64,000 bases of DNA from Escherichia coli (GCF_003790525.1 NZ_CP033635.1); one strand, 5' to 3'; counted from the stretch's first letter, positions 48,094 through 56,874 are shown. Made by a program: numbers and translations. The notes: a model not told the origin generated them from the sequence alone.

Positions 48094-48990
48094 TTAACAT
48101 ATAACTTCACGCTCTTCTATTAAATCAAAAACATTATTCGTAGTGTAATGTTCCCATCTTTTATTATATCCCTCTTTCGACAAAATTGAGACATCATCCG
48201 TTCCTTCTCCCTCATCTAAACCATGCATGAAACAAACTCCAGCAACATTAGAAAGAACATATCTATTATGCAGACATTCATTACCCTCGCGAGAAGTTAA
48301 AGACTTAAATGTTACTGATAATTTAAAATCGTCTGGAAAGACAAGGTTTTCGCGGTTCAACTTATTAGCCAAATAATTCACCGTTGGGGAGTTTTCTTTA
48401 CTCCCATCAAATATAACATCTATCTTTAAATTTTTTTTATAAGAGTTATTAGCACTAACGCTAAGTAATGAAATAAATACATTCCACCATCTTTGTTTGT
48501 CACTAAAGTATGGGTCAACTATAATAATATGCTCTGATGTTTTTAATAAGCGTGAGATTATAGATATCATATCCTCAGCAATTCTAGCAACAATTTTTTG
48601 CCGAGCATAATTTAACCCAAAGAAATCATCTATATTAGTTACATCAAGGTTATCACAAGGAGTAGAACTCACTACATGATCAAATTGTTCAATTCGATTT
48701 ACAGCAGAGATGTTATCTGACCATGACATGTCACCAACATAATCATAAACCCTACTAACCTTATTATTTTTCAAAAAAATAATAAGGTCCTCTAATCGTT
48801 TTTTTTGAAGTTCACTATGATTAGCATTTAATAGCCCAAGCAATTGTTTTTTATTTCTCTTCAGCTTTGGTAATTCACTATAGAGAAAGTTACCGCCCGT
48901 AGAAAATCCTTTTATGAAGTCACGATAATTTCTCCGATCAATTGCGATCTCAAACAAAGCCTCTGGTGAAATGGCGCATTCGTAGAACAT
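48094..48990 (-). CDS. hypothetical protein with a PLD-fold-like (MIT_C-like) DPY...H-N-R...G-x-G-LD signature
   Basis: ORF 48094-49035. The ATG at MFYECAISPEALFE overlaps the ATPase stop (TAATG). The C-terminal half contains HIIIVDPYF and, about 100 aa later, CLHNRYVLSNVAGVCFMHGLDEG. The gene is AT-rich. Confidence 0.5.
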   Translation of the reverse strand: MFYECAISPEALFEIAIDRRNYRDFIKGFSTGGNFLYSELPKLKRNKKQLLGLLNANHSELQKKRLEDLIIFLKNNKVSRVYDYVGDMSWSDNISAVNRIEQFDHVVSSTPCDNLDVTNIDDFFGLNYARQKIVARIAEDMISIISRLLKTSEHIIIVDPYFSDKQRWWNVFISLLSVSANNSYKKNLKIDVIFDGSKENSPTVNYLANKLNRENLVFPDDFKLSVTFKSLTSREGNECLHNRYVLSNVAGVCFMHGLDEGEGTDDVSILSKEGYNKRWEHYTTNNVFDLIEEREVIC

Positions 48991-50612
48991 TAAAAAAGCT
49001 CTCCCCTTCTTTCTTCGAAGAAACCTTTGGGCCATTTTTGTTTGAAGTCACCATCATCAGTAATATCTATTTTCCTAGTAACAGTCGAACCATTATTATC
49101 CTCGAAAACGATCACTGATATAAAATCAGGTTTTACTGGGTAATTTGATTCAGGTAATTCATTGTCCGTTGTTTGTCTAATTCTTTTTAAAATTCGAAGC
49201 AAAATGTGCTCACTATGTGTTTCGACTAAAAACATAGGTCTTTTAACATCAAGGGGATATTGGGTAAACAGATCACCTACAGCGAGTTGTAAAGCGGGAT
49301 GAATATGTAGCTCAGGCTGCTCTATAGCAATTAATCCATCCTGAACTATATTGGCTGCAATAATAAGAGGTGCTATCTGAGTTAATCCGACACCGACTTG
49401 ATTTGGAAATAACATTTGGCTTGAATCTATTTTACAGAAGTAAACATTATCTTTCAGACCTAAAAGTTGAGGGGAGGTTTTTATATCAAATTCTCCTCCA
49501 CTAAATATATTATAATTAGTGTTTAGTTTATCTCTATTGGAAAACCAATCACTTACTTTTTTAATCAAATCACTATCATTTTGTTGAGATAAACACAGCT
49601 TATCCCATGCTGATGTACCATCAAACCATCCATTTTGTTCTGGATAAGGATTTGGCGTAAATGAAGAATCAGGTATAATTCTTAACGGTCCAATAGATAC
49701 GCTAGCCTTTAAATAATTATTTAATTTATCTAACGGAGAAGTAAAAACTTGCGTTAGCACTCTGGTGATTATATCTCGATTAAAATACTCAACTGGCTCG
49801 GATATATCAAAAACTTTCAAATTTGTATCAACAGTTCTTCCCAGTTGAGGTAACGCACCAATTTTCGTCTTTAAAAAAACAGGAAACATTGGTTTTTCTT
49901 TATCTTCTTCAAATATATAATCAACAGTTTTTACTCGCTCTGTTGCACCACTTTTATTACGTTCTAAGCCAGGAATTAAGTCATTTAAAGATATTTCAAA
50001 TTCACTGGCAATCGTATCTAATCCTTCCTTATCAATAGATTCAAGCCATAAATTATAATCAATAGGAAGAAGCAACGGATGAGTAAAGTTCAATCTATTT
50101 ACTAAAGATGATTTAGTATACTCATCATTACTTAGCTCTCCAATAAATTCATTATTTATAGAAACAGCATAGTTCTTTATATATGCTGCTCTGTGCAATT
50201 GTGACCATGCGATTTTAAACTCTACATAAACCTTTTCAGTTTCATCTGCAATGTCTTTCATTTTTATAAAATGAATATCGAAAATATCACCAAGTTCTTC
50301 TAAATATGTTTTATATTCTACACCTATTGTTTGTTCAGGATCGAAACCGATACCAATAGTAATTACATTATTCAGATCCCCATTATGGACTAGAGATCTA
50401 AATCCATCTATGCGCCTGTTCCCCATAGCTTCTAAATATATAGGATCACACTGCTCACGGTCTAATATTTGTTGAAGATAAAATAATGCAATTAAAATAG
50501 TAGTCTTGCCCGCGCTGTTTGGCCCCAATAGTAATGTTACAGGTGCAAAATCAATTTCCTGCCGCTCTCTAACAGATCTGAAATTTTCAAGTACAAGTTT
50601 AGTTAATTTCAT
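48990..50612 (-). CDS. ABC/AAA_15-21-type ATPase (OLD/RloA/PtuA-like N-terminal ATPase class)
   Basis: 540 aa beginning MKLTKLVLENFRSVRERQEIDFAPVTLLLGPNSAGKTT (Walker A). Near the C-terminus are GLIAIEQPELHIHP (Walker B / D-loop type) and LVETHSEHIL (H-loop). The gene starts 8 nt after the hsdS stop. Confidence 0.75.
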   Translation of the reverse strand: MKLTKLVLENFRSVRERQEIDFAPVTLLLGPNSAGKTTILIALFYLQQILDREQCDPIYLEAMGNRRIDGFRSLVHNGDLNNVITIGIGFDPEQTIGVEYKTYLEELGDIFDIHFIKMKDIADETEKVYVEFKIAWSQLHRAAYIKNYAVSINNEFIGELSNDEYTKSSLVNRLNFTHPLLLPIDYNLWLESIDKEGLDTIASEFEISLNDLIPGLERNKSGATERVKTVDYIFEEDKEKPMFPVFLKTKIGALPQLGRTVDTNLKVFDISEPVEYFNRDIITRVLTQVFTSPLDKLNNYLKASVSIGPLRIIPDSSFTPNPYPEQNGWFDGTSAWDKLCLSQQNDSDLIKKVSDWFSNRDKLNTNYNIFSGGEFDIKTSPQLLGLKDNVYFCKIDSSQMLFPNQVGVGLTQIAPLIIAANIVQDGLIAIEQPELHIHPALQLAVGDLFTQYPLDVKRPMFLVETHSEHILLRILKRIRQTTDNELPESNYPVKPDFISVIVFEDNNGSTVTRKIDITDDGDFKQKWPKGFFEERRGELF

Positions 50613-56400: not shown

Positions 56401-56874
56401 CCTGATTGCATCTTCCAGACGTTTTTCATCTGCACGACCTGAAGATTGTGTTAATGGAGGGAGTGTAAATTTGGGGCAGTCATCAACATTACCGTGGGCG
56501 TAGCGAACATACAGCCAAATTCCCAACAAATACGCTTCTTTGAGCAGCCAGTAAGTATCTTTAGCTTTGATACGTCCGCCGTGCGCGGCACGGTTGCCAT
56601 GGATACGCAGCGCATCCATTTTCATGATGATGGCTTCCGGCATCATGCTGGTAAAGACATCAGCATTCATTAAATCGTAAAGATTAGCCTTAATACCTTC
56701 CGGCAACCGCTCCTGACGATACAACCAGCGCACCATCAATTCGGTGTAGTTGCGCAGCTTGACCAGACAACTTTCCGGATCGGAGTGAACATAGCGTTCC
56801 GCCATACACGCGAGTTCAGCCAGTTCCGGCCACTGGCTGCGCAACATTTCAAAATTGAGAGACTGCTCCATCAA
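53458..56874 (-). CDS. hsdR: type I restriction endonuclease/translocase subunit, long form
   Basis: 1138 aa. It has a PD-(D/E)xK-like nuclease core (GYADYVLWDEAHKPLAVVEAKK), SF2 helicase motif I VQATGTGKT and motif II IIADESHRS. An additional roughly 150-aa N-terminal helical domain and a long C-terminal extension are also present. Confidence 0.9.
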   Translation of the reverse strand: MMEQSLNFEMLRSQWPELAELACMAERYVHSDPESCLVKLRNYTELMVRWLYRQERLPEGIKANLYDLMNADVFTSMMPEAIIMKMDALRIHGNRAAHGGRIKAKDTYWLLKEAYLLGIWLYVRYAHGNVDDCPKFTLPPLTQSSGRADEKRLEDAIRAQDESRERELALQRALQQEQEKAEHLTQRLNEARARNQHVADILSIDEAETRRRLIDSRLLAADWNVGEGLKNTDQVTQEHPVKEQPTATGDGYADYVLWDEAHKPLAVVEAKKTSVNAEQGRIQARLYADWLEKEYDQRPIIFYTNGYDIWLWDDHKTHGYPPRRVFGFYSKESLQYLIQQRETRLPLNSVPHVKDNEGKAVAGRLYQLETIARVSERFTNKYRQSLIVQATGTGKTRVAIALSKLMIDARWVKRVLFLCDRKELRKQAANAFNQFTNEPLYVVGKSKKADRQNARIYIATYPGMMKIMDHFDVGYFDLIIADESHRSIYNVYGDLFKYFDALQIGLTATPIDMVSKTTFGLFGCEGRIPTANYSLEDAIADNNLVPYEVVTHTTEFLREGIKREKLSDAQIRELEEQGIDPNTLEFDGKALDEAIYNKDTNRYILRNLMENGLKDRDGQLPGKTIIFARNHKHALLLNELFDDMYPQFAGRFCQVIDNYDPRAEQLIDDFKGLDESTNKELTIAISVDMLDTGIDVPEIVNLVFAKPVKSKVKFWQMIGRGTRLCPGLYGYDDNGKPLDKQKFRIFDHWGNFEYHELHTEEAEVTATKSLAQKRFEAWVMLGAAAQRKFDKQAVDLVAHQLREQINALDEKSIAVQEKWHQKAQYSDEKVLRQLSPKTQQDLLSVLAPLMQWLDVRGQSDAMRFDMDILAAQTARYTNPEELDVLWPVIVEKVERLPPHLAQVQQQGPRINQLRDLGWWKQASLEELEDIRIHLRGIMHLMEKDATPKFGSIQVDITEDANLIQTENRKTNIRSIDFKLYRQQVQGALEPLFQQNPVLKKIRNGEPVTQSELDELAKLVLIQNPNVDIRALKEFYPQATASLDKLLRTIIGMDSDAVEVRFAQFAADNSLTSQQLRFLSLLKNHIRDYGTIEMRQLFEQPFTHIHNEGVTGVFPDIEQIARLQKIVEELGVVTDAATV

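Follow-up and report, generated by a model that had tools for sequence, protein, structure and literature searches.

The window analysed here, a 64,000-nucleotide stretch of Escherichia coli DNA (GCF_003790525.1, NZ_CP033635.1), carries a type I restriction-modification (R-M) system whose genes are followed by an ATPase gene and a gene for a small partner protein, which raises the question of what this pair is and whether it is tied to restriction. Five co-directional genes are located on the minus strand in the order hsdR, hsdM, hsdS, ATPase and partner, with gaps of 63, -4, 8 and -1 nt between them. The same anatomy had been described in an earlier note on this DNA, and its open reading frames, coordinates and spacings could be reproduced exactly.

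Homology searches firmly assign the first three genes to HsdR, HsdM and HsdS. The restriction subunit gene hsdR (53458..56874, minus strand; PADLOC REase_I 1.7e-273, and Pfam) encodes 1138 aa when read from a TTG codon, while RefSeq places the start at an ATG at 56871, 3 nt downstream. Pfam domains of the protein include an N-terminal DUF4145, an HSDR_N nuclease, a ResIII/SWI2-SNF2 helicase and an EcoEI_R_C tail. The second gene, hsdM (51760..53394, minus strand; PADLOC MTase_I 7.5e-193, Pfam N6_Mtase and HsdM_N), encodes a type I N6-adenine DNA methyltransferase of 544 aa with an NPPF motif, and its stop codon overlaps the start of hsdS by 4 nt. The specificity subunit gene hsdS (50621..51763, minus strand; PADLOC Specificity_I 2.8e-155) begins with GTG and encodes 380 aa with two target-recognition domains, Pfam Methylase_S being matched in two stretches. 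The NPPF, DESH and EAK motifs are all present in the translated R-M proteins. A HsdR with nuclease and SF2 helicase, a HsdM and a two-domain HsdS are encoded together and form an intact type I R-M system related to EcoAI/EcoEI; the matches of HsdR to the NCBIfam EcoAI-family and PRK11448 models score under the equivalog cut-offs.

The five genes had been taken as a single unit, but hsdR may be set apart. A consensus scan, together with the sequence itself, revealed a terminator-like GC-rich hairpin, AAGCCCCGGCAGCGGGGCTT, then TTGTATTT, at 53426..53445 on the minus strand, inside the 63-nt hsdR-hsdM gap, with an 8-bp stem containing six GC pairs and a T-rich tail after it. This hairpin may be a boundary, as predicted from sequence, between two transcription units, hsdR alone and hsdM-hsdS-ATPase-partner, so that the supposed five-gene operon possibly consists of two. 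By the same approach, a strong terminator-like hairpin with a 12-bp stem was located about 100 nt past the partner stop codon (47967..47993, minus strand), at which the transcription unit probably ends.

The suspicion that hsdS, ATPase and partner had been swapped in together as an AT-rich segment was borne out. The GC content is 31-36% over 48.0-51.7 kb, whereas it reaches 48-55% over hsdM and hsdR; by gene it amounts to 51, 51, 34, 33 and 33% for hsdR, hsdM, hsdS, ATPase and partner, respectively. In blastn, the resemblance to loci of Pectobacterium and of other E. coli ends exactly at the hsdM stop codon, the cassette breakpoints lying at 51760 or 51215, and hsdS is the first gene of the variable segment. 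With their Pectobacterium counterparts, HsdR and HsdM share 96% and 91% identity, but HsdS, ATPase and partner only 53%, 47% and 27%. The far boundary is formed by the remnant of an integrase gene (47687..47879, plus strand; RefSeq annotation of an identical locus and blastn breakpoints), from which point the sequence again resembles that of E. coli strains carrying different cargo. An intact integrase adjoining tRNA-Leu is found in strain hubt-sl, and other E. coli strains carry SIR2, or a nitrilase plus a 5'-nucleotidase, in the same slot. The hsdS gene and the pair form an exchangeable AT-rich cassette in an integrase-bounded E. coli island.

The ATPase gene (48990..50612, minus strand) encodes 540 aa with an AAA_15 head (Pfam 1.1e-22), in agreement with the ATPase class read from the sequence earlier. 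Among the PADLOC models it matched PDC-M55A (1.4e-40), NsnB (3.2e-37), HEC-03B (6.7e-25) and AriA (5.5e-22), and for the ATPase homologs of two related loci the NsnB model gave the top score. By profile score, the protein is closest to NsnB of the Menshen system and to the candidate PADLOC model PDC-M55A, with scores (127-138 bits) that indicate the level of a sister family and not membership. The C-terminal tail is DUF3696-like, with the motif WPKGFFEER; the DUF3696 score of 18.5 bits lies under the Pfam cut-off of 22, and many homologs carry this domain (PF12476). Further motifs are Walker A GPNSAGKT, GPLR, a GVG signature, an unusual Walker B EQPE and the H-loop ETHSEH, of which GVG and EQPE, together with WPxGFFxER, are invariant across the family. 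In other ABC ATPases, EQPE in place of DEPE weakens hydrolysis. The invariance of EQPE in this family suggests a slow, switch-like ATPase. In NsnB, the Q motif is described as replaced by an Arg (PMC12065111), and the GPLR motif, compared by description, is an Arg-containing candidate counterpart.

The partner gene (48094..48990, minus strand) starts with the ATG within TAATG, overlapping the ATPase stop codon, and encodes 298 aa. In the predicted structure (pLDDT 96.6), residues ~1-135 form a PIN-like domain that has no conserved acidic catalytic set, and the remainder (~136-298) folds into a single PLD/MIT_C-like domain with the alpha/beta fold of the PLD (HKD) superfamily. The PLD-like character proposed earlier is thereby shown by the structure model, and no TOPRIM, HNH or anticodon-nuclease match was obtained with PADLOC, Pfam or NCBIfam. 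The PLD domain contains an invariant D159-P160 (IVDPYF) and H241-N242-R243 (LHNRY). Over 107 family sequences of only ~25% identity, H241, R243 and D159 are near-invariant, a constancy that suggests an active site. The family motif H-N-R-Y-x-L-[ST]-[DEN] corresponds to HxR(x)4[D/E/N], with Arg for the Lys of the canonical HxK(x)4D. Among compact structures, the MIT_C domain of MITD1, which is not known to be catalytic, matches best; because of this motif and this relative, the domain could bind and not cut. Profile matches among the 107 members were to BrxL (15/107), NsnC (6/107) and MIT_C (3/107), and the family, comprising ~1000 clusters at 50% identity, is annotated as 'hypothetical' in every source. 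As modelled, an inactive PIN-like domain followed by a PLD domain is the architecture of the published NsnC 'inPIN + PB-PLD1' class (PMC12065111), which has an acidic residue following beta2 together with an H-D-R motif and whose inPIN domains are predicted to bind RNA.

The comparison of 80 species loci showed that ATPase and partner are one conserved and very widespread unit over many phyla, which has no name. The two genes adjoin each other in ~77 of these loci, the partner almost always being downstream, and the tight coupling proposed for the E. coli pair was recovered in 81 of 81 pairs, with -4 to +4 nt between ATPase stop and partner start. Since, in addition, the order hsdR-hsdM-hsdS-ATPase-partner recurs in many phyla, the five-gene arrangement is far beyond chance; it is kept in Klebsiella and Pectobacterium despite ATPase identities of 54% and 47%. 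The pair is intact and conserved in 255 E. coli genomes.

The link to restriction was assessed in 60 informative loci of the 80, those in which the ATPase adjoins the partner and 6 kb or more is available upstream, and the co-occurrence survey suggested in the earlier note gave a divided result: hsdS lies upstream on the same strand in 38, but 22 have the pair without hsd genes. While the pair follows hsdRMS in about 65% of the informative loci, the R-M system is not an obligatory partner, because about one third of them lack it. In 26 of the 80 species loci the ATPase starts less than 450 nt from hsdS, often with overlapping codons (29 loci when the window, Klebsiella and Pectobacterium loci are counted), and 14 further loci have hsdS upstream of the pair with inserted genes between. 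The hsd-linked pairs span at least two HsdR subfamilies, ~50% and ~30% identical to the HsdR of the window. Downstream of the pair, relatives carry other defence genes, including GmrSD, McrB-like, NERD-UvrD, TIR-SLOG and Schlafen.

The most informative context of the pair is found in other lineages and is invisible from the window alone. An RtcR-like CARF/sigma-54 activator heads the operon, with a sigma-54 promoter, in 41 of the 80 species loci, and such a gene is usually present in the 22 hsd-less loci. These regulators match the RtcR_PspF2 CARF-AAA-HTH model with E values of 1e-177 to 1e-202 and contain Sigma54_activat, CARF/RtcR and HTH_8 domains. Near-consensus TGGCAC-N5-TTGCT elements lie between regulator and next gene in essentially all regulator-bearing loci. 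Both regulator and sigma-54 element are absent from the E. coli, Klebsiella, Pectobacterium and Enterobacter loci examined.

It is probable that the hsdM-hsdS unit of this type I R-M system is extended by an accessory defence module, an NsnB-like ATPase with an NsnC-like effector, which most likely is an autonomous second layer. By analogy with the predictions published for Menshen, and with PARIS, Septu and Gabija, an ATPase oligomer would hold the effector, the contact being made by the C-terminal tail of the ATPase and the PIN-like domain of the effector. The nucleotide state of the ATPase would shift in response to a cue from the phage, after which the PLD domain would be released or activated and would act as a dimer-forming phosphodiesterase on nucleic acid, ending the infection. 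The pair would be co-expressed and co-inherited with the R-M genes, but most likely would not belong to the restriction enzyme as a structural component. As a counterpoint to autonomy, the same-strand, very frequent and often overlapping junction with hsdS exceeds ordinary defence-island proximity, and it may reflect a real functional tie of the pair to restriction.

Such a tie is central to a different and rather unlikely explanation, already raised in the earlier note, in which the pair guards restriction by watching either the type I R-M complex itself or proteins that counter restriction, such as Ocr, ArdA and Stp, and the PLD effector fires upon a block, as PrrC does with EcoprrI and PARIS with Ocr. 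The proximity to hsdS in 26 of 80 loci and the 14 with insertions, the linkage over at least two HsdR subfamilies and the exchange of hsdS, ATPase and partner as one cassette agree with it, as do the PrrC and PARIS precedents summarised in 10.1101/2024.01.29.577857; since NsnA is missing, the sensor slot would be open for the R-M complex. However, since 22 of the loci with 6 kb or more upstream have the pair but no hsd genes, usually with an RtcR-like gene, the pair must be able to work without adjacent R-M, and the SIR2 or nitrilase plus 5'-nucleotidase genes in the same E. coli slot fit a cargo hotspot.

[quoted passage not shown] The domain composition of the regulator and the sigma-54 elements favour this, as do the RtcR ligand described in PMC7790460, the RNA binding predicted for inPIN domains (PMC12065111) and a similar proposal for CoCoNuT superoperons (PMC11090510). 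The Enterobacteriaceae loci, however, have neither regulator nor sigma-54 element, yet the pair has remained intact and conserved in the 255 E. coli genomes. Moreover, PLD-fold nucleases known from bacterial defence, for example SauUSI, BfiI, Nuc and NucT, have DNA or both DNA and RNA as substrates. Least credible is a pair that is no defence effector, being a non-catalytic accessory (for instance one that regulates restriction alleviation or R-M assembly) or else a selfish addiction module stabilising the island, with a PLD-like domain that binds only: HxR instead of HxK, the MITD1 likeness and the hydrolysis-weakening EQPE would fit, but the near-invariant H241, R243 and D159 suggest an active site, the neighbourhoods are made of defence genes, and anti-phage activity has been shown for sister families that likewise combine an ATPase with an effector, such as Menshen.

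The preferred reading, an accessory ATPase-effector module, was compared with named systems, and PADLOC, whose use the earlier note had proposed, confirmed the R-M genes and found the pair to fit no complete one. PARIS likewise pairs an ABC ATPase with a small effector, is often embedded in R-M or BREX loci, and its AriA model covers the full length of the ATPase, but the AriA score is below those of NsnB and PDC-M55A and no chain named AriA was returned by a PDB profile search with the ATPase family. PARIS was rejected because the partner has no AriB, DUF4435 or TOPRIM match (PADLOC, Pfam, NCBIfam) and a PIN plus PLD fold instead of the DUF4435/TOPRIM of AriB. Septu was rejected since most PtuA models cover residues 1-46 (the P-loop) only and the partner has no HNH match; the PDB search added short matches near Walker B and the H-loop. 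For Gabija, GajA models cover only P-loop or Walker B stretches, the 540-aa ATPase lacks a TOPRIM domain and no helicase gene comes after it. PrrC and RloC share an ABC-type ATPase gene within or beside hsd genes in the same orientation, and offer a precedent for an effector restrained by the R-M complex, but they are single proteins with a C-terminal anticodon-nuclease domain, whereas here two proteins lack such a domain; they were rejected because no PrrC or RloC model was matched in PADLOC and the C-terminus of the ATPase is the DUF3696-like tail.

The PADLOC candidates PDC-M55 and HEC-03 were identified through 'guilt by embedding' within systems of the Hma, BREX or type I R-M kind (Payne et al., 10.1101/2024.01.29.577857). 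PDC-M55A is the best PADLOC match of the ATPase, which also matches the HEC-03 ATPase model, and in HEC-03 an ABC ATPase is accompanied by a protein with a PIN domain, although this protein is VapC-like and has no PLD domain. PDC-M55 differs as a three-family cassette (FAM_00005>>FAM_02935>>FAM_00004, supplement of 10.1101/2024.01.29.577857) and was rejected, as only its A component was matched; in PADLOC the partner matched no PDC or HEC model and 107 of its relatives no PDC model. In the RtcR-headed superoperons (PMC4012209, PMC11090510), an RtcR-like CARF-AAA+-HTH activator is located upstream of co-directional type I R-M and further defence genes, and supplementary file 4 of Makarova et al. 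2014 (PMC4012209) gives the order regulator-HsdR-HsdM-HsdS-DUF3696 ATPase for Desulfobacterium autotrophicum. In the passages of these two papers that were consulted, the ATPase-PLD pair is not presented as a unit or system, and the E. coli locus differs in having no regulator or sigma-54 promoter.

Menshen is the nearest relative, and the impression that the pair had no known relatives does not hold. The ATPase shares the AAA_15 head, the DUF3696-like C-terminal tail, the GxG signature and the non-DE Walker B of NsnB, at sister-family scores (127 bits for the ATPase against NsnB, only 15 bits for the partner against NsnC), and the modelled partner, like NsnC, joins an N-terminal, catalytically dead PIN-like domain to a C-terminal nuclease-type domain, here PLD/MIT_C-like (PB-PLD1). 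Adjacent and translationally coupled genes, a highly variable partner sequence and frequent linkage to type I R-M and BREX are also common to both. The PLD motif is HNR here and HDR in Menshen. NsnA (ParB-DUF262 plus ParBDB), which defines Menshen and seeded its published survey (PMC12065111), is missing: DUF262/GmrSD_N was unmatched in all five proteins (PADLOC, Pfam, NCBIfam) and none of the window's ORFs of 250 aa or longer contains a DGxQR motif. A complete Menshen system was therefore rejected, and the earlier thought that the pair might prove to be an already named system holds for the likeness to NsnB and NsnC but not for a complete system, be it Menshen, PARIS, Septu or Gabija. Where related loci have a head gene, it is the RtcR-like CARF/sigma-54 activator. 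It is conceivable, though we give it a low probability, that this activator, the NsnB-like ATPase and the PIN/PLD protein are a three-part system in which R-M has repeatedly been embedded between the first and second genes, and that in the regulator-less Enterobacteriaceae the R-M complex is the sensor and the pair fires when restriction is blocked or overwhelmed. If so, the E. coli locus would be an integrated five-gene restriction-plus-abortive system, and the three-part system a transcription-level counterpart of the sensor-transducer-effector design of Menshen.

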